64,000 nucleotides of DNA from Rhizodiscina lignyota. Its lineage: Eukaryota. The stretch is from assembly GCA_010015805.1 (NCBI GenBank), contig ML978126.1, positions 124,001 through 188,000 on the forward strand. The letters run 5' to 3'. Position 1 is the stretch's first letter, and every line of letters begins with the position of its first letter. This document shows positions 1,614 through 34,752 of this stretch, in pieces. The position numbers and the translations under genes are program-made. The notes below the pieces were generated by a model, which did not search any database, had not been told where the DNA came from, and was given only the letters and a program-made list of their open reading frames with translations.

Positions 1614-4571
1614 TCATTGAAAATTGAAAAAGTCAAGAGACCCAGTCAAATTTTGAGAACGTCGCTGCGTTTCCTCAATAGCCTGAATCAGCAATTCCGA
1701 CGCCATTAGAGCCATATCAGACTTTCGTCCGAGGTACCACAGCGCTTTGACGCAAGATCTGCATCGCTGAAGAGCCTTTGCTGCATCTTCCGTGGCATCT
1801 TCTCCAGCTTTGCTCTGAGAAGCCGTAGCTCGCTTAATCAGCAAAGAGCCGGCTTTGGTGAAGACGCGGATCAAGCAAGCCGTCCAAGGTTCTGTCAGCA
1901 GAGCTCTCTGGCTAAGAGCATCATGCCATTCACCTCCGACCGAGAACGAGGATGGAGCATTGTCGTCATCGGGGCAAGCTGCCTTTGCCAGCGCCGCCAC
2001 AGCGGCTGAATTACGACTACGAAGAGCGTCGACGAAGCCACTAGCGTTTCTCACGAGGCGATGAGACTCTCTACCCCAGCATCCCGAGTCAATATTCTCA
2101 ATAACATCGGCGAGTATGAGAGTAGCGAGGTACCAATGGCCCGCGAGACAAAAGTACCACGATTGGATTCGGTGAGGGAGTTCCTCGTGATTGTGTACGC
2201 AGTCGTGGAAGAAAGGGTTGAAGGTTCGATTCCAGTAATCATACACGCTAAGGGCATCCGAGATAGCTTCCTCAAACTCTTCTTGTGGACGCGTTCTCCT
2301 TGCGAGAAGTGATTGAAGGCGGGTGACTTTGCGAAAGAGTAGGACTTTAATGGGAGCGGCATCGTTTAAAGTGCGTGCGGCAGCCTCATAGGAGCAAGGC
2401 CATCGCTGGGGTTGTGTCCGAGAAGAGACTCCTGCCTGCTGTCGGAAGAAGTGATCACCCCAGAGATTGTTTCTCGCAGCAGAGCGATTAATGTCCGCAG
2501 AGGTAGATTCAGCAGCAGGTGTGATTTCACTGTCCTCGTCTGAGACAACAAGTGGACGCTTGTGCATGGCAGCAGAGAGTGTATCGAACATTATGGCAAG
2601 CCAGTACAGTAGATCGATTGTTTTACTGTCCTCCGCGCTAAGACGAGAGACTTTCATCGGCGGAATTCTACTGCTTGGCCATGTGATGCCGCTAGGGCTT
2701 GAAGCGTCTTCTCGTTCGAGCCTTTCCAATTTTGACCGCATTGTATGGATATGACGAAGGCCTTGTTCGAGGTATATGGGGGGACCATCTTTGTCAGCCA
2801 AGTCCTCGAGCTCTGCCAAGGAGAGAGGAGGCGTTGGGGCACCAGTCCTCGATGGTTGGAAGGGACGATGGTGCTCTGCAGATCCTAAGTTTGCGGCACG
2901 ATTGGCTGTACGAGCATCAAACCTAGCAGAGTGCAGGTCGTTCAATTCTTCCGGCTGCCGCGGCCTCTGCGATGAATGTCGTCGTAAGGTATCTGAAAGG
3001 AGTGGTTTCTGCGTGAGACCGAAGATAATGTGCGCAAAGACGACCCGAAACGATTCTATATCTGCTGTATCCTGCAGAGCGCGGCGAGCTTGCTGCCACG
3101 TGGACTCTTGAATCGTTCGATCAAATTCTTGCTCCATGGTTGAAGCGAAATTTTCCTCCACCGATTCTCTTCCGTACTGTGAGGTGTTGCTCAGGCTGCC
3201 TGAAAGAGGAGACTGTCTTCTCCCGTTCATATCATTTTGAGAGTATGGAAACGTTGCTCGAGAACGCTGACTGGCCTGTGCCCACTGCGAGCCGAAAGAT
3301 AGAATAGCCAGATGGAGTGCTTTCGTCGCAGCCTTATCTTCTTCTCGGGTTAGCTCGCTTCCGCGGACGGTGGCGACGAGCTTATCGAGCTTGAAAACGC
3401 GTTTGTAGATTCGATTTGACCAGTCGGGACCCCATTCTTCGAGCATGCTTGCGGGTGAACGATCGCTCGTTGCCCGGACAGTCAGACTATAAGGGCACGT
3501 CCTCTCAGTAAGCCAGCAAGATAACGCATTTTCCATACTATCATGATATATTTTCATGAGGTTCACTGTGACAAGATTTCCGTTTGTCGCCGCTACAAGA
3601 CCTCTCGACATTAATCCTGGAAGTGTGTCGATGACGAAGGGACTTTTCTGGGAAGGCATGCGGCGCTTCCTCTTCCGATTTGGACGAGTGTCGGGCTCAT
3701 AATAGGATGAATCACGGCTGGAAGACCGCCACAATGCATTGACATTGGTGGAAATGTCGTCATCGGGATTTTCCGGGTCGACTATATCACTCGCATCCTC
3801 AATGGTCTCTGGATACATGGACGGATCGATACCACCGGAAATGCTTTGGAATGGTTGCGTAGCTGCGTTCAACCAGCTCAAAGAGCTCTCCGAAAGATCC
3901 GTCTCGACAGGTGAACATATCGAAGGTTGTGAGGCGCCTATCGATGATCCGTTGGCTAGCGATTGTAGAGATCCATCCAAGCTGGAAATGGAATTTTGAG
4001 GATAGATATCAGGCACAAACGGATTGCTCTGGGATGCGTCAAGCAAATTGTATCCCGCAAAAGATTGCCACCGCGATTCGGTACTACCAGCTTGATATGC
4101 GCCTGATGCAGGAACGCCCTGTGGAAGATTGGGGAAGCTTTGGCTCCAATCGGTCGATGACGTGAAATCAGACGTCGTCGATTCTCGCCTCTGTGTCTTC
4201 GGCGGCCGGAAAGACATCGTCGACTGCTGCTGGGCCTGGAGCCAGTCGAAAGTGCAGCTCTTGTTCGTTTTCGCACAGTAAGAGCATCGCCTTTTTGGGT
4301 CGATTACGCCTTGAAAACGCACGTCAGCTGAGGTTCTGATAAGCTTGTTTCCTGTGCGTCTGCTCTTCGTGGACGTTCAACAGGTAAACGGACCTGGATC
4401 AGGCCCTTGCGAAGGAGATGCAAAGCTCGCATCGCAAGCCCGTTTCCCCCTTCTGCACTGATCGCAACTCTTATTCTGCTTCCTGACCGTCTTGAAAGTC
4501 GATGGGTAGCTACCGGCCTGCGCAGGCGGATCGTTGGGGATTAAGTCCGTTTCAACTGTCTGGGTTGCCAT
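1614..4571 (-). CDS. alcR: AlcR-like Zn(II)2Cys6 transcriptional activator (2 exons: 4571-4394, 4309-1614)
   Basis: Spliced cluster CDQCRRGKRAC-x21-CSYCAKTNKSCTFDWL with the long C3-C4 loop typical of AlcR. AlcR-type blocks IYHDSMENALSCWLTE.CPY and WLAIMFDTLSAAMHKRPLVVSDEDS. Intron 4393-4310 (GTCCGT..GCTGAC..AAG) restores the frame. Confidence 0.88.
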
Positions 4572-5238
4572 TGCTTGCACAAACATGTAGGAGCGATGCA
4601 GTGAAAGGACAGCTGACAAACGAAGCAGAATGCTATAGGTGCCATCCAAACAGACAAATTGAGAAAGGATGGCTTTGAGATGCGGGGTTGTGGAGAAGTT
4701 CCTGGGGCCCTTGCCCGCACATCCCAGTCGCGGATGAACGCAGTCTGTCCTGACCGCCGATGCAGCTCCATGGCATTGGCTCTCAAGCGAGAAGGGTCTT
4801 CAGTCACATTCGGGCAGCCCGGGAGTGACGAATTGGGCCTGTAGCCTTTCGCGACATCCATGCAATGGCGCTCAAGGCGTTGCTGACGCGTGTTCGCGGT
4901 GTACTCCGCAGACGAGAGGGCAATATGGATTTTCTGCTGCCTGACTATGTATTGCAAAACTAGCAATGAAGAAATATTAACGTCCATAATGAGAAGAACG
5001 CTCTTGATTTCTAGAGGGGAATATCAAACATCGACCACGTCAAAAAGAACACGAAACGCCAATTCCGAGACACGCTCTTCAGGAGCAAGAAATCCTCAGA
5101 AGCCATTGAGGTTCGCTTGGAACGGCCAAGGCGGAAACCGGACGAAGGCAATTTCCGAAAGGGGTTGAACGCCGCCCGCCGCCTGGCACGTGACATCGCC
5201 GGGCCATCTCTACCGATGGAAGATCGTGATACGAATAT

Positions 5239-5874
5239 CTAGCTGTCCTCCTCCTTCTGTTGTTCCTTGGCCATCTTTTCAGCTTGCTCCTTCTTCTTCT
5301 TCTCTATAGCTTCGCGGTTTTTCTTCGCCCACTTGGGTTCAACCCCATCTTTCCAAGGCCCTCTATACAGCATGCGGTCTGCGTACTCGAGTAGCGTGTA
5401 TTCCTCCTGCGTCGGCGTGCCTGGTAGCTGCCATGGATCCACGATACAGGACTTCTCGCCTTGTGCTTTGCCCGAACCCACACACTTACACGCTAAAGCC
5501 CATCCCGCATCGTTCCGCTTTTCGGCTTTGCAACTGCGGTCCGGGTTCTCTTTGTTTAGTCTCTTTGCCTCCGCCTTGGCCTTCTTCCTGTGCCATGTTC
5601 CTCGGGCCATCAAGAGCTTGTAGACTTGCGCAGATTGTGTCGGATTGTGTTGGATCTCTGACATGTCCATTGCCGGCGTGGATTCAGCTGCCATAACCGC
5701 CATGTCATTTCCAACACCGGGCTCTTTGTCACAATTAGCTTAAGATGCCGATATGCGCATTCCAGGGTGGAAGTCATTTCGCCATAACATACCTGTGCTA
5801 TCATCAACTGGTGCAACAACAGAAGATGCCACGGCCGAAAGAATGGAAAAAGCCAAAATGAACCTGAGTCTCAT
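5239..5874 (-). CDS. Small secreted basic protein, about 188 aa, 4 Cys (effector-like)
   Basis: Signal-peptide-like MRLRFILAFSILSAVASS. Intron 5792-5724 (GTATGT..GCTAAT..AAG) joins it in frame to ORF 5239-5703. Confidence 0.75.
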
Positions 5875-6298
5875 ATCGATGAGTTGGTAGCTTGTAATTG
5901 CGACTAATGGAATATGGGCGTATGGAGAACAGCTTGGTTGAATTTGTTGGAAAGGTTTGGAAGGTATACCCCGACATGAGTCCTCCTTCTCCACCACCTC
6001 ATGGTACTGGCATGTGACTAGCATGTGTATATTGAGGGAGTTGCACCCCAACCCCGCTATCATGAAGTCGTGCACCTAGTCTCAAATACGCACTTACTAA
6101 AGCATTTCGTCTTAAGCTTCAACGAAGCTCTCGCCTAAGCAGAGGAGCAGTACTCGTTTCTTTTATCGCCCTCGAACCAAGTCAAGCTCAATCGATGCTG
6201 ACCAACGCGCGACCATTTCAAATCGAATCATGGCATCACAAGGCGCAAGGAACCGCCGAACAATACTGGTCTAGATGCAATCCTATTTGCCATTTGAC

Positions 6299-7702
6299 TT
6301 ACTTTCCAGAGCGAATAGCTGTATAGACTTGTGTCTCGACATCGAACCACATACCCAGCACCTTTGCGTCTGCAAACGGAAGTATCTGGGTACAAACCAT
6401 GCCTGCGACTCCAGACTCTCGATCACACCACCACCAGCAATTCGGCAGACCTGCCCAATGACCCGTACCAGTTGAGCGACCAGTTACTCCTCCGTTGCTG
6501 AGCATGAATGTCAGCCCCCATCCTTGTTCCGGGCTTTCTGGAACCGGGTATAGATCTGGTATCGGATTGGTCAACTCCGGTTTTGCGTCTGGAATTCCCT
6601 TGCGTCCAAAATTTGGAAACTTCGTGATCTGGTTCTGGAACATCATGTCCACCGTCGACTGCTCCAAAAGCTTCACATGGGTTTTTGGTGAAACTCCTCC
6701 GTTCAGTAGCGTTGCCAAAATTTCTGACAATGTCAGCACATCGAATTTGCAGTTCTCGAAGGACATGTTGCTTACGGACATAGTCCCCTGGCTTTGCAAA
6801 GCATCCCGCACCACCACTATGGAAGAAGTCGTTTACTTTCATACCCGGCACTAAAGGCCGATGAAGTAGATGATCCCTGCGAACCAAGCTTCCATCAGGA
6901 CGGCGATAATGCATGTGCGCCAGCGCTGCTCTCATTTTCGGCCTTGGGTGCATCGTTATGTTTTCCAGCCCGAGTGGATTGAAGATGTGCGTCTGGATAT
7001 ATTCATTCAAGCTCATTTTGGTCGCTCGCTCGAGGGCAAAGCCTGCCCAGTCAATATTCACCTAGCCAGATATGTCAGAATTGCCCTTGACACCACGTTG
7101 GTGCATAGCTTACACCGTACTCCCAATCTTCTCCTGGCTGGTGAACCAAGGGCTGTTGGAGAAGGTCCTGAGCAGCACCAGAAAACTCGTCGAAGCCTAC
7201 TGGATAGCTGAAGTCTCGGAGCTTCTCATTGAAAAATGTGTATCCGAATCCAGCTGTATTCTCATCGGTCAGAGAACTCGAAGTAGAAATGCATAGAGGA
7301 TGACAAAGTACCTGTGTGGCTCAGGAGCATGCGAAGCGTGATTCTGTTTTTCTGTTCTACGAGCTTTCCATCATCTTGCAGTACTTTAAGACTTTTCAGT
7401 TCGGGGCACAGCTTGTCGAGATGATCCGCATCATCCAATTTGAGCATGCCTCTCTCCACCAACTGCATGCAAGCAAAGCCAACAATCATTTTCGTACATG
7501 ATGCAATCCAGTAGACGCTGTCCAGCGTCATTGGCTCATCACTTCCACTTCCTCTCTTTCCGCCAGCATGGGCAATGAGTTCTTCGCCATTACGATCTAC
7601 AACGACAACTGTCGTGCCTGGAATTCCAGATTTCTGGTCTGCGCAGGCAGTATCGATTGTATTTTGGATGTTTTTGATTGTTTCTGCGCTCAACGACGAC
7701 AT
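6299..7702 (-). CDS. Serine beta-lactamase-fold hydrolase (family VIII esterase / LovD-like), multi-exon
   Basis: SxxK motif WIASCTKM, ITLRMLLSHT, NIDWAG, GGAG and WAGLPN motifs across ORFs 7262-7774, 6423-7061 and 6299-6817. First ATG at 7702. Confidence 0.9.
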
Positions 7703-7880
7703 TTTGCTGTGGTGCCTGGTTAGAGATTTTCTAGGCAACGCTAAAGCTGATACCCGGAGCACAGGAGCAGACAACGTCTATTTACGGCTTTGCTTACCAC
7801 CACATTCACTATGACCAAATACGGACCACGGACGAAAGGTTTGTACCTAATTGTTAGATGACGCCCCTGCACGGATTTCC

Positions 7881-7928
7881 CCGCATAGTATGCGGATCCG
7901 CAGCTAATGAGGCTTTCGCGGGTCCGCA
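7881..7928. promoter_or_regulatory. Cluster of AlcR-type binding sites in the divergent esterase/BVMO promoter
   Basis: Perfect inverted repeat TGCGGATCCGCA at 7891-7902, near-perfect CGCGGGTCCGCA at 7917-7928 and an extra CCGCA at 7881-7885. Matches the A. nidulans AlcR consensus WGCGG-N2-CCGCW. Confidence 0.65.
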
Positions 7929-8443
7929 ATCCTTCCGACAGCCTCAAAACGCGGGGACGTCCCAGGTGCCAGGGCTCCAGAAAGGCAATAACACCATTTC
8001 AGTAGGGTCTAAAGATCCAGGCTCTTGGCGAACGTCAGATTGCCCCCATGGTCGACCTATTTGAGAACACTGAAAACTGCAGATGAGCTTGTAGATCTGC
8101 GGAGATGACACCCCTCATCGGTGTTGGCAGGAACCGGATGCTCCCGTTGGACCCTCACACGACAGATGACAGAAAGCATTGTCGCGTGTGCAGTACCTTG
8201 CGGAAGCGCAGAGCGAGAGCGACAAATGTCGTCTGCTTGCAAAGGTGCGAATGTTGGAGGCATTTCCAATTGCGGGACCGATGTTTGAAGCGGGGACAAT
8301 TAAGGGGCAGTGACTGAGTGTGTAACTGTCAAAGGAAGTATATAGAGCCTTATATCTTGTCTATTTTGAATATAATCTTCACTTATTCAAATCTCATTCT
8401 CTATTGTATGCATCGACTCCCCTTTCTTCGTAGCTCAGCCAAA

Positions 8444-10415
8444 ATGTCGACCGCAGAAGATGTTTTCGCCGCGCACAGCGACCCGGCCGTAATGGCCAAG
8501 ATGCATACGGACCTTGCGCAGTACAGCAACAGAAGGTCGACAACCGGGCCGTACGCGGACGATCTTGATGTCGATGTTCTCGTTGTGGGAGCAGGTTTCG
8601 GTGTGTCACCTCTGATGCTCTTGTCGTGCTTCACTGCTTGCTGACCACTATTAGGTGGCGTCTTTTGTGCAAAGACGTTACGAGAGATGGGCCTCAAGGT
8701 GGTCATCTACGAAGCTGGACAGAGCTTCGGAGGAACCTGGAGGTGGAACAGATATCCAGGTGCAAGGGTCGACTCTGGTACTAGAATCCCTGGTCACTCC
8801 TAGTCAGTTGCTGATGAAACTCAGAGGTACCTGAATACGAGTTCTCTTGGCCAGAAGTCTGGAAAGATTGGACATGGTCCACCAACTATCCGAATTACCA
8901 AGAACTCAGAGAGTACTTTGACCATGTTGATAAGGTCATCGACCTGAGCAAAGATTGCTCTTTTGAAACCGTAGTTACGGGAGCACAATTTGATACCAAG
9001 GAAGGAAAGTGGCATGTGAAGACGGCGGATGGAAGGCTCGCAAAGGCCAAGCATCTCGTCGTCGCAGCAGGATTTGTGTGTATATCTCCAATACCCGACT
9101 TTTCTCTGCTGATCCTCGCAGGCCTCTAAGCGCTACATTCCCAACTGGAAGGGACTGGACAGATTCAAAGGAACACTCCATCACAGCTCATTCTGGCCAG
9201 ATGAGGGTGTAGATGTCAAGGGCAAACGCTGTGCCGTCATCGGCACCGGCGCATCAGGCGTCCAAATTTCCCAGGAATGGGGTCCAGATGCTGGCGAACT
9301 CAAGGTGTTCCAACGAACGCCTAACCTCGCGGTTCCTATGGGAAAGCGCATGCTCACTCCCGAGGAGCAGAACAAAGGAAAAGACTGGTATCATCGACTG
9401 TATCAGTTGCGAGAGAAGTGCTACGGCGGCTTCTTCTACGGCATGCATGAGCGAAACACGTTCCAAGACACCCCAGAGGAGCGCGAAGCATTCTATCACA
9501 AGCTGTGGGATTACGGCGGCTTCAGGTTCTGGCTCGGTAACTACAAGGACATGCTCACGGACGCAAAAGCGAACCAGGAAGCCTACAACTTCTGGGCTAA
9601 GAACGTGAGAGCCCGCATTGGGGATGCGAGGAAGCGAGATATCCTTGCACCACTTGACATGCCCCACTATTTTGGTGTGAAGCGGCCATGTCTCGAGCAG
9701 AATTACTACGAGCAGTTCAACCGAGACAACGTGGACGTCATTGACATCAAGGACAATCCGATTGCCGAATTCACGGAGACTGGAATCAAGCTGGAGAATG
9801 GCGATCACTACGAGTTTGATGTGATTGCCATTGCTACTGGCTTCGTACGTCAAACCTTCGTTAAACCAAGACAGGATAGCCTTGAGCGCTAACGATCGCA
9901 GGATATTACAACAGGTGGCATGACCAACATGGGCCTCAAGAGCATCAAAGACACCGACCTTAAGACCGAATGGAAATCCGCCGCGAATACCTATCTCGGC
10001 ACCACTGTCGGCGGATATCCCAACATGTTCCATCTGTAAGTCATTTATCTGGCCCTTACTTACGCCTCGGCTGACAACATATAGATACGGCCCTCACGGC
10101 CCCACGCTTCTCTCCAACGGCCCCAGCACCGTTGAGGTGCAAGGACGGTGGATCTGCGACTGCATCCAGAAGATTGAGCGCGAGAACTTAAAGTATATCA
10201 ACCCCACCGACGAAGCGGTGAAGGCGTGGAAGAAGCGCATCAATGACATTAGCGATGCTACGCTCTTCCCGACGACGAGATCGACATACATGGGTGGCAG
10301 CATTCCGGGCAAGGCGTTTGAGCAGGTGAACTATGCGGGCGGAATCCCGGCATACTGTGTAGAGATTCGGAATGCGTTGGATGGATGGGTTGGATTCGAA
10401 ACTGTGGCAGCGTGA
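8444..10415 (+). CDS. Type I Baeyer-Villiger monooxygenase (FAD/NADPH), multi-exon
   Basis: VVGAGFG Rossmann motif, GGTWRWNRYPGARVDS, BVMO fingerprint FKGTLHHSSFWPD (FxGxxxHxxxWP), second VIGTGASG, FQRTPN, KRP and ATGF motifs. Confidence 0.93.
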
Positions 10416-12158: not shown

Positions 12159-13055
12159 ATGGAGCGCGACGGACACCCATATCAAAGCATTACGTACAAA
12201 ACCGTAGGATCGCTGCCCATCAAGCTCGATCTCTATCTCCCCTCGGCCTCATCTTCTTCCTCCAAAACGCCTATCCTCGTCTGGTATCATGGAGGCGGCC
12301 TGCTTAACGGCAGTCGTGCTGCTGTCAAACCTCACACTTACTCGCCTTTGGAGCATGGCTACGCCCTGGTGTCCCCTGACTACAGGCTCGCGCCGCAAGT
12401 GCCAGCACGTGAAATCCTGACAGATGTTCTGGACTGTCTGTCCTTCGTTCGCGATAAGCTGCAAGAGCACGTTCCGGCATCTTCGGGAATCACGTTCGAC
12501 AAAAGTCGGATCTGCGTATCGGGCTCGTCCGCGGGCGGATATATCTCGCTGCTGGCCGGTCTGTACAGCGACGTCCCTAAAGTCTTGCTGCCAATATATC
12601 CGATGACGGACTGCTGGGGCACTTTCTTCACCAATCCACAGATGCAGGGTGTGAAAGAGGGGCACATCGACAAGAGCGTCGTCGCGCCGTTTTTGGACAA
12701 GAACGCGGAGGTTATGGCTGATAACGACCCATCTTCACCACGTCAGCTGATCTACTCGTACATGCTGCAAGAAGCTATTCTGCCGGAGCTGTGGGATGTC
12801 GAAAAGGGCGATGAGAAGATGACTATCAGGCTTGCGATTATGAAGAAAGGCTCAATGCCCCCTTCTTACATTGTGCATGGGGACGCAGACACGAGGGTCG
12901 GCGTAGAGCAAGCGGACGAAGTCGTGCAAGCGCTGAAGGACATCGGTGCAGAAGTTGTGTACGAGCGACTACCAGGTCTGGACCACTCATTTGATATTGA
13001 ACCCAAGTACACTATGGATGAGATGTACGCATTCATGTATAAGCACATGCAGTAA
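12159..13055 (+). CDS. Alpha/beta hydrolase (HSL-like esterase/lipase)
   Basis: HGGG oxyanion motif, DYRLAP, nucleophile GSSAG, HGDAD acid and DHSFD histidine. Single 298-aa ORF. Confidence 0.92.
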   Translation: MERDGHPYQSITYKTVGSLPIKLDLYLPSASSSSSKTPILVWYHGGGLLNGSRAAVKPHTYSPLEHGYALVSPDYRLAPQVPAREILTDVLDCLSFVRDKLQEHVPASSGITFDKSRICVSGSSAGGYISLLAGLYSDVPKVLLPIYPMTDCWGTFFTNPQMQGVKEGHIDKSVVAPFLDKNAEVMADNDPSSPRQLIYSYMLQEAILPELWDVEKGDEKMTIRLAIMKKGSMPPSYIVHGDADTRVGVEQADEVVQALKDIGAEVVYERLPGLDHSFDIEPKYTMDEMYAFMYKHMQ

Positions 13056-13133: not shown

Positions 13134-16100
13134 CTAAGCGACCCTCCTAAATCCCCATTGCTCCATCCAAAGCGCCATCCACTCAGGTGTAACGGGCCCC
13201 AGTTTTTGCATCGTATGACTCTGCTGCAGCACCTTCTCGATCTTTAAGACTGGCAGAATCTTTGCTGCACCGTTGGCGTGCCCTTTACTATCGACAGTCA
13301 GTGTCTTGTAGAATTCGAGTAATTTGATGCCAGGGTTCTTGTCCACGTCGGCGCCTTTCGCACCCTCGCCGCTCTCCTGCAGCAACCGAACCCATTCAGC
13401 GAGTGACACAACCTTCACTTTCGGATCAAGGTAAGGTATCACACCGGGTAGGATAGTCCTCCAGCTGACACATGTCGGATTTGATAGATGGATCACGTCC
13501 GTGATGGAGGCGCTCTTCGAGCCCAGGAGAATTTCAGTGATCGACGGGGCCAGAATGTCAATCGGAATCCAGTCAATTCCATCCTGCAAGCCGAGCTCAT
13601 CAGGGATCGCGCCGATGTGTTCGGAAGAGGCGATTATACTGGGCAGCCACTCGCGGATGTTCCAGACCCCATGCGAAACCGACGTACCAGCAAGCACAGG
13701 ACCAGCAATCTGGCCAAGCCGAAGGATGGTGGATTGGATGCCAGAACGTTCCCCAGCGAGAGTCAGGAGCCGCTCTGCGATATGTTTAGAGGCTCCGTAA
13801 GCGTTCAACTGCGATACATCGATGTTGCTTGATATCGTTTCAGGTACCAATGCAGGTGAAGGATGGTCCATAACCGCGGAGATGGATGAGATGAAGAAGA
13901 TCCTTGGGGAATGGTGACCTCGGGAAGCAAAGTCAATGAGGTGCTTCACACCGTGGATATGCGGGATGAAAGACTGCAGTGGTTGATTAAAATCTACAAG
14001 CCAAGCATTATGCAGGATATGTGTCGTCTCGTGTAGAAGGGTTGTGTATTGATCGAATGAGAACCCGAGGAGAGGGTGAGAGACGTCGTAGGGGAGGTAG
14101 ACGACTTGGTCATCGGACTGGCCGGCATTGCGGCGGACCAGGCAATATATCTTGTCGAAGGATTTTCGCAGGGAAGACAGAAGATATGATCCTAAATTTC
14201 CCGTCGAACCTGTGAGGATGGCGACTTTCCGTGGAGACAGTGGAAGGCTTGAGGATAAGCTGCTGAGAAGTTCAGATGCGATTTCGTCGGTGTTGACCTT
14301 TCGATCATTGACCCCCGAACGTACGGCTTCCGTCAGCTCCGCAATCGTGGGGTTATTGTATATTGTCGTTGAGGTGACGTTAGATCCGAGCACTGTGTTG
14401 CTGAACAACTGGGCCAAACGAATCACATGTAGTGAATCAACCCCAGCCATGAATATATTCTGATCATCCTCAAGGCCAGATATGTCTGTCACTTGGTGGA
14501 TAATCTGACGAATGGTGCTCGCTGTGACGTCTTCCGCACGAGTCACAGGAACTGAAGCGTCCCCATTCATACCGTTCACTCCGTTAGCATGTCGATTGGT
14601 CAAGATCGAGCCCTGTTTGCGGTAGACCTCGTCCAAGTCTTTCTCATATGCTTCGAAAGTTTTGCGGCGCATGAGGCTTCCTTTGGGGGTTTTTATGATT
14701 GGCCTCCCATGTTTCGTGACAAGAATAAACCCCTTCTGGATTCTGCCATGTGCTGGTAGTAACTCGTTGGCTTTGGCCACCGCGGGCCATAAATCGTCGG
14801 CATATTTGCTGTCATCGAAATTGGGGTCGTTTGCCAGTTTCTCGTTAGGGTCAACGAGGAGCACAGCTTGATCACGATCTTGACCAAATACGGCACACAC
14901 TGTGACCTCCGGGAGAGAGTCGATAACTTCCTCCAGTGCCAACGGGTTGAACTTTTCTCCATTCACAAGAGCAATCACGTCATCCTTTCGGCCCGCATAC
15001 ATCCACAAGTATGATTTTTGAGGATCTGGATGTCGACGAAACAGGTCTTTCGTCCTGTATTCCTGCAGCCTAGGAAAATTATCGAAAACGGCCTGGCGCT
15101 CCTTCTGAATCCTGTCATCCCTGATGTAGACCAGTTCGTACAAATCAGTGCCAGGATCCTGCTGCAACTCGACGCCAAAGCCATCTATGAACCAGATGTA
15201 CTGCCAGTCATCGCCATATATCCTATGGCAAGGTGCAAAGCTTGTTTCCGTGGAAGCCATGAAGTTTGATATGTTCGGACCGAGCGCTTGGATGTTATTT
15301 CCTGCGTCCAGTGGCATATGCGCCCCAGAAGTGGCGATGTTCTGTAATTGCCTCAAAGCCGGGTAATATGCGACATCCTTTTGGAGCTCGACAAGGATTG
15401 CAGGTGGCGCAACAGCGGCCTTGGTCCCGGTCAATGAGATAATACGCGCGCAAAGATCTGCATTCACAATTTGGTCCGGTGGAGGAAATATCAACGTCTG
15501 CACAAGGTAAATGGGCTTGAGAGTAGCCCAGAGGAGGGCGGCGGCATGAAATAGTGGAAATGCGCAGAGCCATATGGGAGGAGAAGCATACGAGGTACTG
15601 ACACTAACGGGGAGTCCATCCTTCGGCTTATAATCCAGGTAGCCCCACATTCCCGATGACATGCAGCCATGTGTGAATCCAATCGGCTTTGGCAAGCTGG
15701 TCGTCCCTGAGGAGTGTAGGATAACTAATGGCTTCCGACGAATGTCTTCGAAATCCTTTGTGAATGGAATGTGCTCTGGTGCTGGACCGTCGAGCATGGC
15801 TTCGAGTTCTGGGATAAGGATTTCTTCGAGCGGCCTCGATTTGAGGATGGCATCGACACCGTAGAGTCTCTTCGCTGGCGTTGCAAAGACTGAGCATCCG
15901 ACTTTGTCGATAAGATGGATCTGAGCCTCCAAGCTATTTCGTGGTGATAGGTAGAGCATCTAAATGGATATTAGAACGAACAAATCAATAAGAGTACAAG
16001 GAACAATTAACTAACCACACAATTTACTTTGACTGCCGCAAACATGAGAATAACATATCGAAGGTCATTGGGCCCAATGTACGCAATCTTCCGAGTCTCC

Positions 16101-16318: not shown

Positions 16319-18750
16319 AACAAGGATTCGGGACTGTGTTACACAGGAAGGAGAAGATCGTTGAAAAGATGAGCAAAGTCAGCAAATATAAGTGAGACGA
16401 GAACTCGTTCTTTTAAGCTGATTCCATATACTCGAACCGGAGCCATTCTCCAAAATGAGACACATGCAGCGCCTGGCTGGAGGCAACTAACTGCGAGGAG
16501 AAAGTTTGGCTATGACGACGGCAAACCCGGAAGATCAGTCTCTACTCCGTAAAGTCAGTTAGCAAGTTTTGGAATCTCACACCATTCAATGGTTCAATCT
16601 TACCATCGTCCATCCTATTACGTGCCCTTGAAGCGATGGAGACAACCACATGATCCAAATATTCTCTGACCGAGTAAAATGGTTCTGAATTGAAAGATGC
16701 TTACTTCGATCGGAAACACGAGGATGACAATGGTTGATTAATATGGCTCCACCCGTGAAACCTACCATGAAGGAGATTGGCTGAGTCGACGACAATTTGA
16801 TTATATGGGTTTAGTGAGTTGCTTCGAAAGACGTCTGCAGCCTTTCCAAGCCCTTAGAAGCCCATGCTGCCTCGAGCCGAGTATGCTTACGTTGTGTTGA
16901 GCATGATAAGAGAGGTCGAGGAATGCGGGTTTCAAAGAACGAAGTGTAGGCGGCCGCTCAAGACCGCTCAACGATATAAGGTACCAAGCCGAGCTTGGTG
17001 AATAATAGCAGGCGTGGCGGGCTACGATCTCACACGTTCCGACACTGCCACGCCGAGTGAGCCACCCGAGTGAGCCACCCCATGTGAGACGAGGGCGAGT
17101 AAATCGACCATCGGGCTACCGACGTTTGCCCACATATCGTTTACGAGATTGAACTAGAGATCAAAGAATTAATTGGCCATGTTCATACGAGACGCTCCTG
17201 GCGATGACGGAAGTGAATGTTGTGATTTCGGGAGAGTGGTGGGCTAAGGAAGGCGTTGCGGAATCGAGACAGATGCAGAGCCCTGTCCAGACGCTAGACC
17301 AGTTTCGAGCACTTACAGCATCGACTTCACATTCTTCTTCTCGGACGAGATGCCACGAAACGACGCGTTCCACAGCAAATCTATGAATAACGAAGCTGAA
17401 CATTCAAGTGCTGACGTGCTCAAGATTCAATGGCTACGAAGTGGACTGACCTTTGCCACAGTGCCGTCCTGCTTCCCTTTGACTCTCCGTCGGAATTGTC
17501 CCTGAGATAATCCAAAGACACGGAGAACGACCTGACGTCCAAGACCCACAGCACACCGCATATATCGGCAACGTAGACCTAATTTCAAGGTTCTGTGCGA
17601 ACAGTTCGGCACTACCCTCGACCCTCGACCGCGATTGATATTAACCGGCTTACTTAACGATCGCGATGTGCTTCTCTTTGGCTGCCCTCCTCCATCTCAT
17701 GCAAGACAGTTGACCACGACGTCTCGAGCACAGCACGAGTTGTACGACCACAGCCAACAGGAATCTCGATAGAACGGTGAATACGCCATACATGCAAGCC
17801 TGAACTGCTTGGGGCCGATACGGACGAGCTTTCGCCTCCCCTACTAGTGTCGAACAGTTCAGGATATATTGAGGATAATTATTGCATCCGCGGAGATGAA
17901 CACCGAGGAGTAATTAGAAGAGGCTGAGCTGGGCTCAAGCATCCACAAGGGCACCCGCTTTCTCTGGATAATGTCCACGATGCCGATCCAATATACGCTA
18001 GATGTAAGATACTTCGGAGGAAAGTGATATGGACACTACAAGCGTTGCACTCATTTATTGCAGTGATTAACAGGCTCACTTCCCTCCAGGAGAAATGCAT
18101 GTGTTTGGCTTCTTTCGAGGCTTTGAACGCTGCTTCCCACAGGCGCAAAGCCTGCACTGATCCGCACGATTCTGGATTCCGGTACATACATCCATCATTA
18201 CACCACAGAATGATGTAATCCATAGGCAGCTACTAGCAGCTACTGAAACTCTTCAAATATGCTCCCGCTATCGTTGTGTAAGCTACCAAAATCAATTTGC
18301 TTAATCTCCATCTTCCGGTCTATTTTCGTAGTCCGTGATTTCCAACACAATTTCATGCTTGTTTTATCGTAGAACGCTGGTCAGATCTTCACTTGTGTCA
18401 TTGTAGAAGTAATGAAATTGTTCTCTCATTCCAGTGAAAGCAATACGCGTATCGGAAAGTTTGTAGTGGACACAATTCAACGGTTCGCCTTGCTCAGTCC
18501 ATTTCAACGATATCAACGATAGGTAGCCAATGGGATTTAATCGATTACCTTTCACCATGATGGCGTTCAACCCAATTTTTTCTCTCATTGTACTGCTATA
18601 AATTTATAGTATCTCCGCAGCTCACTCAACATCCTCTAAGAGACTTAATTTCGACCTGCATTCACCGGAATTCGTTACAAGCTCGCAAAATATACTTCTC
18701 TCCGAAACAAAAGCAAGCAGGAAGACAAGTCTTATTTGCAGCCTCCTACC

Positions 18751-20214
18751 ATGTCTATAGCCGCATTTGAAGAGGATGCTTGGTCTGAGTTGGTGGAAAC
18801 CGTCATTCACGAGGCACAGCTAGAAAGAAACAAACCAAAACTTCAGCATGATCCGGAGTTGGAGTTCACCGACAAGTCATACTCCAAGTTCTTGCAATTG
18901 CCGGCTGAGATTCGCTACAGTGTCTACGAGTCATATCTGGGCAGCGACAATCTCCTTACCTGTCCCGATTTCATGGGCTGGAAGCCCCCAGTCCCTGTTA
19001 TCGTCAATCCAAGGGCTATTTTCGAACCCATCCAGGCTCGACTAGGGGATGTTGCTCGATCTCACCAAGATTCGCCTTCCGAGCATGCTTTGAAGCGCAA
19101 ACGGGAATGGCGACTCCCTCTGGTGTGCAAGGCAATCGCATCTGACGTGACAAGGCATCTTCATCCTTCTTTTGATAAGATGGGTATCACTATCGAAGGA
19201 ACGGGGGTCTCCATTGACGGCCGACACTATAGGACGCAGGGTGTCGTATATCCGGAAGTTTTACAGAGACTTCTCTCTCGGTACTTCGAACATGCTAGAG
19301 AGGTGCTAATACATAGCACTATTTTGCCATGCGAAGACTTATGGCACCGCTGGGATGACTATTCTGGTCTCGACGGTATTACTCCTTACAGCAGAGAGTT
19401 GGGTTTTGGGTATTCAGGATATGAACTGAACAGTATATCGTACGCTTTCGAACCGTGGTCCATCAAGAACACATGGCGTGTGATCGCACCTCTTCTCGAC
19501 AGAAACAATGCTCCGCACCTGCGCAAACTCACGATCGTATTTCACACCCACGTCTCGATGCGAGTACAGCAAAGCCTCTTGTCGCAATCGCATCGGGTAC
19601 TCGGCACCACCCCCATATCGGCAGACACCATCACCTGGATCCTAGAGCCACTGACTAGTATCCGCACCGCCGCGTCCATTGTCTTGGAGTCAGTACACAT
19701 GTCAACAGACGGCGGGTGGGGCGAATTGGATCCGGTCAGTGTAGGGATTCATATGCGCACCAAACTTTCACAAGAAGTGCGAGACTCCTTCCCAACGCTC
19801 ACAAAGCAACTCTGCAAATCAACGAAGAGTTTCAGCACTCCGCCTCATTGCCGCGCATTCGATACCTTTGCGTACTTTGAAGCTCTCCTCTGGGAAGCCA
19901 TGACGGTGCCGTCCCTCCTCGACACCGCATTCTGGCTGTACCAAGGACAGTTGCTCCGTGACGAGCACGACGTCTACAGCTACAGGGCGCTCGAGGACAT
20001 TGTGTTGCAAGAGTACGCTGTCGAAATAGATTCTCCTTCGGTCGTCCGAGCGGTGCCGCAGTATATCGTTGCCTTGTTCAAGGCCTTCCGTAGTGCGTGT
20101 AAGGAGAGGGAGGAGTGCAGCGGTACACATACTGAAGGATACTGGCAGAAGCGCCCGATGTATGAATGGCTCAGTACTAAGCATCCCATTGGGCGATATA
20201 ATGTGCATAGCTAG
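18751..20214 (+). CDS. Hypothetical protein with N-terminal F-box-like motif
   Basis: Long single ORF (first ATG 18751) with FLQLPAEIRYSVYESYL. Confidence 0.7.
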   Translation: MSIAAFEEDAWSELVETVIHEAQLERNKPKLQHDPELEFTDKSYSKFLQLPAEIRYSVYESYLGSDNLLTCPDFMGWKPPVPVIVNPRAIFEPIQARLGDVARSHQDSPSEHALKRKREWRLPLVCKAIASDVTRHLHPSFDKMGITIEGTGVSIDGRHYRTQGVVYPEVLQRLLSRYFEHAREVLIHSTILPCEDLWHRWDDYSGLDGITPYSRELGFGYSGYELNSISYAFEPWSIKNTWRVIAPLLDRNNAPHLRKLTIVFHTHVSMRVQQSLLSQSHRVLGTTPISADTITWILEPLTSIRTAASIVLESVHMSTDGGWGELDPVSVGIHMRTKLSQEVRDSFPTLTKQLCKSTKSFSTPPHCRAFDTFAYFEALLWEAMTVPSLLDTAFWLYQGQLLRDEHDVYSYRALEDIVLQEYAVEIDSPSVVRAVPQYIVALFKAFRSACKEREECSGTHTEGYWQKRPMYEWLSTKHPIGRYNVHS

Positions 20215-27557: not shown

Positions 27558-28958
27558 CTAATCAAATTTGACACCCATTCTTCCTTGTGCCTTTCCTTCG
27601 TGCTATTCGACTGTCAGGTTTCGTTCCAACTTTCTATTGCGGAGACTTACCATCAACTCAATCATCTTCGGTAACTCCTCGAGCTTGTAATATGTTATGT
27701 GTGGAGCAATCTTGTGCTTTGCGCTGAATTCAATGCAAGGTGCCATGTTATAGCAGGCTGTCCCGAAATTAGTACAACGTCCGGGCTATTATCATGAACC
27801 ACTCACTCCCGTTGTTAGAGCCTTTGACGCGATAACGGCCGAGAGCGATATCAAGCTATTAATCTGTGAGTCAAATTACACCCAAGGCTTCGTATGAGAC
27901 TCACGGCATTAAATTGAATAGGCTGCTGAGGAATGCCCACAACCATAATCAAACCTTGGCCAGGCTTCACCAATGCCGGCATGTCGTCATAAGCCTTCGA
28001 CGGTCAGCTTCGTCTAAGTTTTGATATGGCTTTCCTTCGTCGCTCACCTTCTTCGACGCGGTAAAGTTGGCCGCAGCATCCACTCCACCGCCCGTAATCT
28101 CCGTGATCTTCTTGATGTAATCCTTATCCGTCATCGAGTTAAACACATAGTCCGCACCCTGATTCTTGGCCTCCTCGAGCTGCTGGTCAACGATATCAAT
28201 ACCAATGACTTTCAACCCCATAGCCTTTGCATACTGGACTCCCAGATGGCCTAAGCCGCCTGTACCAACGATGGCAATCCATTGGCCGGGCTCCAGCTCG
28301 CAGTCTTCGACGCCATGGTACGACGTCACACCAGCGCAGAATAAAGGCGCAGCTGATGCGACGTCCATCCCCTTTGGAAGGACCATGGTGTTGCGGGCGT
28401 CGACACATACGTATTCTTGGAAGAATCCATCGCGGGAAAAGCCTTGCATCATCGTCTTTCCAGTAACGCACCTTTAACTCGTCAGTTAGGCATATTTCAT
28501 CTCGCTCCTCTCAAGACATAACCTTACCATGCATTGTGCCTGTGGCCTCATCAGCACGTCGTGGCTCACTCATAAGGACAGTCGCACTCACACTTCCTTG
28601 CAAGGCTTACATTCAAAGCAGCACTCCACAGGACAAATAAAGCCTACCTCATCTCCCTCTTTGAATCCCTTGACATTACTACCAGGTTGCACAACTCGAC
28701 CCGTTGCCTCATGTCCGATCGTGACAGGGTTCTGGCCCAGAATCAAGCCCTGGTCGTTCGGCTCGAAATGCATGACATCTGAATGGCATAGTGAAGCGCA
28801 GACGACCTTGACCAAAATTTCATGCGGCTTTGGCTCGGGTATCGGGATTTCGTTAAGGTGGAGCTTATTATCTCGCGCATCATATCTGATATCATCAGAT
28901 AAATATTCAGTTTCGTTCAATTTACCTCTTACTGTTGCGCTTTCTGTGTCTTCGCCAT
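27558..28958 (-). CDS. Zinc-dependent (MDR) alcohol dehydrogenase, multi-exon
   Basis: LCHSD, GHEATG, structural Cys CFECKPC, APLFCAGVT, GTGGLG. Last exon GRMGVKFD*. Confidence 0.9.
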
Positions 28959-29512
28959 GGCTTGATGGTCGGAGATAGGGTTAGGGTTTTGCGGAGCTCG
29001 GTAGTGATTACTGGAAGGGGAAATGAAGATCAGATCAATTGCAACGAACTTCGATAGCAAAAGATGTTGGTCGTCTATTTAAGATCAAACTGCACGAGTC
29101 ATTACTCCAAAAACCGCTCCAAGCCAATGACTTTGCTATTTTATACATGTGGTGCGGCTATCGTAGTCCGTCTAAAGTGATCCGCCATTTCCCCACTTAG
29201 GAAAAGGGATACCGAAACTAAAAGGACGCAGCATCATATGGGTGTCGAGCTATTCGAGAAAGCCTATAACACCTCGAGAAGAGCATAGAGTGTGATTAGA
29301 GAGTGCTGTATGGTGGCTTTTGCTCCTGGAGAGACTTTATATGCACTGCCCATTACTACAAGATCGTTGATTGCAACTGTATGCAGACGCGATACGTCCA
29401 TTCGATATAGAACAGATTAAATATGACATTTGGCACAATCTCAGTGGTATCTAAACTCTGCGCCATCGCTATGCATGCTCCATATGTGAACCAAATCCTT
29501 ATCCCGTAGTCC

Positions 29513-34733: not shown

Positions 34734-34752
34734 TGCGGATTGCGGCACCGCA
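34734..34752. promoter_or_regulatory. AlcR-type inverted repeat upstream of sugar-porter gene
   Basis: TGCGG (34734) then TGCGGCACCGCA (34741-34752), ending about 94 nt before ATG 34846. Confidence 0.5.

Follow-up and report, generated by a model that had tools for sequence, protein, structure and literature searches.

A conserved fungal gene trio of an AlcR-family regulator, a beta-lactamase-fold esterase and a Baeyer-Villiger monooxygenase as a candidate ketone-breakdown module

We analysed a 64,000-nucleotide stretch of contig ML978126.1 (hereafter the window) from Rhizodiscina lignyota, a fungus of the class Dothideomycetes. Positions 1614-10415 hold genes for a zinc-cluster regulator of the AlcR family, a serine esterase and a type I Baeyer-Villiger monooxygenase (BVMO). 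Genes in the window have short introns, and their models were assembled by hand from open frames and splice signals, giving the following coding features.

4571-4394, minus strand: regulator exon 1, with the start codon, the basic stretch and the first three cysteines of the cluster
4393-4310, minus strand: regulator intron of 84 nt (GTCCGT ... CTGAC ... AG), which splits the Zn2Cys6 domain
4309-1614, minus strand: regulator exon 2, stop included, with the second half of the Zn2Cys6 cluster and a long C-terminal regulatory region
7702-6299, minus strand: beta-lactamase-fold (family VIII / LovD-like) serine esterase, four exons, 413 aa
8444-10415, plus strand: type I BVMO, six exons, 572 aa

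The regulator gene (1614-4571, minus strand) yields a spliced model of 957 aa. Its public counterpart, P0001 (734 aa), begins at an internal methionine 223 aa into this model and past the intron-split Zn2Cys6 domain, which is why databases give no zinc-cluster domain for the regulator. The esterase model (exons 7702-7312, 7253-7114, 7061-6776 and 6723-6299) is identical to the public protein P0121, and the BVMO model (exons 8444-8600, 8655-8777, 8825-9075, 9122-9844, 9902-10035 and 10085-10415) equals the public P0241 plus 16 extra N-terminal residues. Esterase and BVMO stand head-to-head, their start codons separated by 741 bp (7703-8443), and the regulator gene lies 1.7 kb past the esterase. 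The original prediction, made from the same DNA, had placed these three genes within 9 kb, and all three were found where it put them.

The spliced BVMO model carries FKGTLHHSSFWP, GAGFGG and GTGASG, representing the fingerprint and both dinucleotide-binding motifs; type I BVMOs are defined by the fingerprint FxGxxxHxxxW[P/D] between two GxGxxG dinucleotide-binding motifs. Searches of the Protein Data Bank (PDB) returned 33 sequences at E<=1e-50, including PAMO, CHMO and steroid monooxygenase. Among these, P0241 matched 6y48 best, over residues 6-554 with 895 bits (E 1.4e-268), and 5J7X, which we take to be BVMOAFL838 of Aspergillus flavus, with 601 bits. 6Y48 is BVMOAFL210 of Aspergillus flavus according to PMC12015234. 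'HK97 family phage prohead protease' is the source name given to the BVMO and to dozens of fungal orthologues, evidently a propagated misannotation of a flavin monooxygenase.

The esterase belongs to Pfam family Beta-lactamase (PF00144) and has the motif SCTK at residues 68-71 together with Tyr176. All 25 aligned orthologues share Ser68, Lys71 and Tyr176 without exception, and the catalytic residues align with their counterparts in 4lcm. The best PDB matches were the 'Transesterase' 4lcm (E 1.6e-44) and Pc15g00720 (6kjc), followed by bacterial family VIII esterases. We take the 'Transesterase' entries 4LCM and 3HL9 to be the acyltransferase LovD, Pc15g00720 (6KJC) to be the lovastatin hydrolase PcEST and 1CI8 to be EstB. 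By its sequence, the window enzyme could be either a hydrolase or a transferase. R. lignyota also encodes P0202, a second esterase relative with 66% identity over the query exon, on a different contig.

In the spliced regulator model, six cysteines form the pattern C-X2-C-X6-C-X21-C-X2-C-X6-C, in agreement with homologues. Pfam Zn_clus matched exon 1 partially, at 17.5 bits and under the 21-bit cut-off, because the intron splits the domain. The best PDB match of exon 1 was the AlcR DNA-binding domain 1f4s (E 5.3e-5, residues 27-49), and 1f4s alone was matched by the first 60 aa of exon 2 (E 0.013); neither half of the DNA-binding domain retrieved another zinc-cluster protein from the PDB at E<=10. 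At E<=0.001 the large exon had 252 homologues. They belong to Leotiomycetes, Dothideomycetes and Eurotiomycetes, and a few (P0033, P0054 and P0116) are source-named AlcR. The whole motif was readable in 47 of 120 listed homologues, where the loop between the third and fourth cysteines measures 12-40 residues; the other 73 models have no readable cluster motif. In the readable homologues, the flanks are strongly conserved, with C-D-Q/P-C-R-K-G-K-R before the loop and C-T-F-x-W-L after it. Homologues, 1f4s matches, loop and a tree described below confirm the AlcR family that had been assigned to the regulator from the DNA. No alcohol dehydrogenase (ADH) gene lies beside it. The sole zinc-type ADH in the 64-kb window, at 27970-28980 (ADH_N, ADH_zinc_N), is 23 kb away and has three WGCGG sites upstream, about the number expected by chance.

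The interval between the divergent genes contains the sites on which a regulatory connection would depend.

7703-8443, no strand: bidirectional promoter between the esterase and BVMO start codons, 741 bp with eight WGCGG sites
7881-7928, no strand: core site cluster CCGCA-N5-TGCGG-N2-CCGCA, with a further CCGCA 21 bp on, approximately 180-225 bp upstream of the esterase ATG
7891-7902, no strand: palindrome TGCGGATCCGCA, with half-sites and a 2-bp spacer as in the alcA AlcR inverted-repeat site

The earlier description of a head-to-head pair across about 740 bp with AlcR-type sites was therefore borne out. The eight WGCGG sites compare with 2.9 expected from the window mean (Poisson P 0.009), and TGCGG alone occurs seven times against 1.6 expected (P 0.0014). 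This stretch includes the window-wide maximum for a 741-bp frame (nine WGCGG), and 7881-7928 is the only cluster of at least four WGCGG sites in 60 bp anywhere in the window. The AlcR site of the alcA promoter contains TGCGG-AA-CCGCA, as given in PMC13606033. The general form WGCGG-N2-CCGCW (WGCGGNNCCGCW) was found three times in the window against 0.19 expected, and none of 100 shuffles had three or more. The enrichment recurs in other esterase/BVMO promoters: WGCGG density is elevated 2- to 4-fold in all six that were compared, with 6.8-16.6 per kb in the five from other loci (metagenome contigs introduced below), against a background of 3.9-4.7 per kb over the window and the whole loci L008, L020 and L060. 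Those three loci by themselves have 4.1-4.7 per kb. These six promoters (5,581 bp) together contain five palindromes (one in the window, two in L020 and one each in L021 and L029, hence in four of six promoters and three of the five other loci), whereas everything else in the 686,777 bp of loci contains three. We infer from these patterns that the regulator binds the candidate TGCGG/CCGCA sites in the promoter.

The two remaining palindrome matches in the window lie outside the trio. One is part of a triple AlcR-type site, TGCGG-N2-TGCGG-N2-CCGCA at 34734-34752, approximately 95 bp upstream of the likely start of a major facilitator superfamily gene of the sugar-transporter family (Pfam Sugar_tr), which may be a further target of the window regulator. 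The other, AGCGGTGCCGCA at 20049-20060, lies inside a long open frame (18649-20214) and is probably coding sequence and coincidental.

Synteny was assessed by comparing the three homologue lists and then looking up accessions and locus tags. By these, the trio is consecutive in seven other species from four classes: the Dothideomycetes Zopfia rhizophila, Polyplosphaeria fusca, Lophium mytilinum and Lepidopterella palustris, and, in other classes, Cirrosporium novae-zelandiae (Xylobotryomycetes), Claussenomyces sp. (Leotiomycetes) and Dipodascopsis uninucleata (Lipomycetes, Saccharomycotina). The Thermoascus crustaceus trio has one gene intervening (tags 4209, 4211 and 4212). Among the species sets looked up, eight of eight were consecutive. 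Regulator and esterase are adjacent in eight further species, namely Leptodophora, a Mollisiaceae species, Oculimacula yallundae, Sarea resinae, Plenodomus lindquistii, Paecilomyces variotii, Aspergillus turcosus (two strains) and A. hiratsukae, so that this adjacency extends to at least 16 species beyond the window; in Glonium stellatum the regulator adjoins the BVMO. Gene order varies between BVMO-esterase-regulator, BVMO-regulator-esterase and esterase-regulator-BVMO, yet the trio persists, as would be predicted by selection for clustering rather than by an inherited order. In the Lipomycetes yeast D. uninucleata the consecutive members of the trio are P0048, P0159 and P0328.

Metagenome contigs were scanned with the esterase alignment, which gave 80 loci, and the gene content of these was determined by tblastn.

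3 of 80 loci (L008, L020, L060): all three genes, in the window layout BVMO(-) / esterase(+) / regulator(+)
7 of 80 loci (L025, L041, L042, L043, L044, L048, L061): esterase and regulator
2 of 80 loci (L021, L029): esterase and BVMO, on short contigs
68 of 80 loci: esterase relative only, many on short contigs or more distant paralogues

Conservation of the trio, which the original prediction had named as one of its checks, was thus found both among species of four classes and, in the window layout, on three metagenome contigs. Partnerless esterase paralogues are common among the metagenome loci. Upstream of the esterase-regulator pair in L044 (5653-8395), the neighbours are a carbon-nitrogen hydrolase and an amidohydrolase.

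The conserved unit ends with the trio. Of the other genes in the first 22 kb of the window, none is shared with any of the nine related loci examined. One open frame lies between the regulator and the esterase.

5239-5739, minus strand: lysine-rich open frame of 166 codons, doubtful and outside the conserved unit

This frame belongs to no Pfam family and had no tblastn match in the nine related loci. Beyond the BVMO come an alpha/beta hydrolase (BD-FAE/Abhydrolase_3; 12159-13052) and a gene for an enzyme resembling nonribosomal peptide synthetases (NRPS-like; 13137-15959), neighbours that raise the question of whether the NRPS-like enzyme is the core of a secondary-metabolite cluster, with esterase and BVMO as its tailoring enzymes and the Zn2Cys6 protein as its specific regulator. 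An adenylation-thiolation-reductase enzyme and an alpha/beta hydrolase 2-6 kb past the BVMO would suit such a cluster, and LovD-like enzymes and BVMOs are both found in fungal biosynthetic clusters. However, the NRPS-like gene and the hydrolase are unmatched in the nine related loci, in which the trio is matched, and the trio is consecutive in seven species with no synthase in between. As the trio is conserved in those loci without the NRPS-like gene and the hydrolase, we rejected this explanation, which we regard as very improbable.

The explanation that we favour, and consider fairly probable, is that the trio is a co-regulated module under an AlcR-family activator, taking a ketone through an ester to an alcohol and an acid. 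We take the most likely effector of the regulator to be a ketone or something formed when the ketone is broken down. Once activated, the regulator would bind the TGCGG/CCGCA cluster, including the TGCGG-N2-CCGCA palindrome, in the 741-bp promoter and switch on esterase and BVMO jointly. The BVMO would insert oxygen beside the carbonyl of the ketone, most likely an aliphatic 2-alkanone, to give an ester. The esterase would then split the ester formed by the BVMO into an alcohol and an acid (acetate in the case of a methyl ketone), both usable by general metabolism. An AlcR-controlled ketone module of this kind had been proposed in the original prediction, and our computational tests agree with that model and support it at the level of sequence. 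Related chemistry is known from yeasts, which turn dodecan-2-one into decyl acetate by inducible enzymes; the authors of that work (PMC4192553) call knowledge of it scarce. We found no description of a fungal AlcR-type regulator with a BVMO/esterase pair in the open-access literature, subscription papers being outside the scope of the search. This agrees with the earlier suggestion that the arrangement is undescribed in fungi, and the trio is probably an undescribed fungal unit for ketone breakdown.

Several observations weigh against a module of this kind. On the side of the promoter, WGCGG is unenriched over the window as a whole (248 sites against 253.6 in shuffles), and frames with at least eight WGCGG make up 2.2% of the window, occurring also near 29.6, 34.7-35.2 and 54.4-55.1 kb. 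Enrichment within this single window is modest (P about 0.01), many Zn2Cys6 factors have CGG-containing sites, and the palindrome is absent from two of the six promoters (L008 and L060), which have single or direct sites. The 667 bp upstream of the regulator (4572-5238) contain three WGCGG, no more than chance, and we therefore make no claim of autoregulation. On the side of the genes, the nearest solved relative of the esterase is labelled a transesterase, not a hydrolase. The 68 metagenome loci with an esterase relative only include L036, L038 and L014, which are partnerless despite long flanks. L044 and L048 pair esterase and regulator with no BVMO within 10 kb and 5.6 kb upstream, respectively, and in Sarea resinae, Coleophoma crateriformis and Pyrenochaeta the best BVMO match is on a different contig. 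The unenriched window and the site-rich frames elsewhere in it would equally fit the view that chance alone brought the three genes together and that the GCGG sites are noise. That view is contradicted by the synteny data, with the trio consecutive in seven other species of four classes and the window layout on three metagenome contigs, and by the recurrence of the 12-bp palindrome in the esterase/BVMO promoters of four of six loci; we find it hardly credible.

A different question is whether the unit is real and co-regulated but acts on another substrate. The BVMO might convert a cyclic ketone to a lactone, attack a plant or lignin aryl ketone, or help to detoxify a fungal or plant metabolite, the esterase being a lactonase or specialised hydrolase. 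BVMO orthologues bear the source names 'steroid', 'cyclohexanone' and 'cyclopentanone monooxygenase', although these are automatic, and the nearest solved relatives of the esterase, under the identities that we presume for them, act on a complex polyketide ester. The properties of BVMOAFL838, the nearest characterised BVMO with substrate data considered here, cut both ways: according to PMC4966971 it also accepts aryl ketones, but it favours aliphatic 2-alkanones, with Km <=0.01 mM for C8-C12, and converts few monocyclic ketones. The regulator also speaks for simpler compounds. Because 2-butanone and acetaldehyde induce the alc genes (PMC5371717), an AlcR-family regulator suits small aliphatic carbonyl effectors. 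We therefore rate another substrate class as unlikely, and keep aliphatic ketones as the expected substrates of the module.

The position of the regulator within its family was examined with a quick maximum-likelihood tree (LG+G4, SH-aLRT support, midpoint root for an unrooted tree) of 53 of the 120 listed homologues, 67 rows being dropped, which covers the named species and a few others. In this tree the Penicillium proteins P0114-P0116, the bona fide AlcR clade, are nested in Eurotiales; the DNA-binding domain of P0116 scores 87 bits against AlcR, compared with 25-31 bits for the esterase-linked P0020 and P0093. Sister to the Penicillium clade, with support of 88 (unstarred), are proteins of Aspergillus section Fumigati that are esterase-adjacent by accession or tag. 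The next branch out (starred), Thermoascus plus the Paecilomyces 'b' copy, is esterase-linked, as are all deeper lineages. A second Paecilomyces copy ('a') falls on the AlcR side of the tree, and the two copies indicate at least one duplication in Eurotiales. The window regulator groups with three relatives amid Dothideomycete lineages, far from the Penicillium AlcR-like clade. For each Dothideomycete or Leotiomycete species in the tree, the matches listed include a single family member. We regard the window regulator as an AlcR-family member by sequence and do not claim strict orthology with the ethanol activator (AN8978), because the tree is unrooted and does not include AN8978, the AlcR clade is nested in Eurotiales, and the regulator has no ADH neighbour. 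The regulator of D. uninucleata nests among Pezizomycotina sequences, a position suggesting that the cluster was either retained from an ancient ancestor or passed on by horizontal transfer.

The same tree bears on the possibility that the regulator is simply the AlcR orthologue of this fungus and mainly controls the use of alcohols and aldehydes through distant ADH and aldehyde dehydrogenase (ALDH) genes, with esterase and BVMO peripheral to it or adjacent without regulatory meaning. The single family member per Dothideomycete or Leotiomycete species, among the matches listed, and the name AlcR given at source to P0033, P0054 and P0116 accord with this. By contrast, nowhere in the window are AlcR-type sites clustered as densely as in the esterase/BVMO promoter, the regulator adjoins the esterase in at least 16 species beyond the window, and the only zinc-type ADH of the window is distant, with upstream sites at about chance. 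A regulator devoted mainly to remote ADH and ALDH genes is, on this evidence from the window and related loci, decidedly unlikely, although its regulon may be wider than the trio, and control of the neighbouring esterase and BVMO remains our preferred explanation. Since the branches nearest the Penicillium AlcR-like clade and all deeper lineages are esterase-linked, we tentatively propose that the original role of the AlcR family was to regulate a BVMO/esterase cluster that splits ketones and that the ethanol-responsive AlcR is a derived Eurotiales branch that moved to ADH and ALDH genes. On this proposal, and with the same reserve, the cluster would possibly be old or mobile enough to be common to Pezizomycotina and a Lipomycetes yeast, and the ketone response of AlcR might be ancestral.

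For bacteria, the breakdown of ketones through a BVMO and an esterase has been worked out well; in fungi it is known mainly as chemistry. If the proposed module is real, a small and widely conserved cluster would give that fungal chemistry both genes and a switch, and a fungal BVMO family so far studied as biocatalysts would acquire a physiological role. Ketone metabolism would, in addition, gain a link to the AlcR family, which has long been a model of eukaryotic gene induction and underlies the alc gene switch used in plants, and the old observation that ketones induce AlcR would become directly testable. In practical terms, an expression switch that responds to ketones could be built from the promoter and regulator.

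Each component resembles a known system in part. Like AlcR, which activates the ethanol (alc) regulon of Aspergillus nidulans (PDB 1F4S, 1F5E, 2ALC and 3ALC), the window regulator has a Zn2Cys6 cluster with an unusually long loop between the third and fourth cysteines, a conserved basic stretch preceding the first cysteine and a C-T-F-x-W-L motif past the last, and its presumed target promoter contains WGCGG half-sites and a TGCGG-N2-CCGCA palindrome comparable to alcA. Its loop, however, has 21 residues as opposed to 16 in AlcR, as read from the alignment, and it adjoins an esterase and a BVMO rather than alcA (ADH I). The window BVMO is similar over its full length to BVMOAFL210 and BVMOAFL838 and shares their fingerprint motifs, whereas those enzymes have been studied as biocatalysts. 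The texts consulted assign them no physiological role, no partner esterase and no regulator, and the word 'esterase' occurs zero times in PMC4966971. With LovD, PcEST and EstB the window esterase shares the beta-lactamase fold and the catalytic set of Ser-x-x-Lys and Tyr; the similarity is distant (E 1.6e-44 to 2.4e-17), and the window context differs in having no polyketide synthase.

Functional parallels are found in bacteria, in mekA-mekB-mekR of Pseudomonas veronii MEK700 and acmA-acmB of Gordonia sp. TY-5, which we take to serve methyl-ketone and acetone catabolism. MekA is mentioned in PMC4966971. The window genes differ in being eukaryotic, with introns, and in having a divergent promoter instead of an operon. 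Their regulator is an AlcR-family Zn2Cys6 protein, whereas MekR is presumably of the AraC type, and the bacterial partner esterases presumably differ from the beta-lactamase-fold (family VIII) esterase of the window. What the systems have in common is the combination of a BVMO, an esterase and a linked regulator, and with it the logic by which a ketone would be converted through an ester to an alcohol and acetate.

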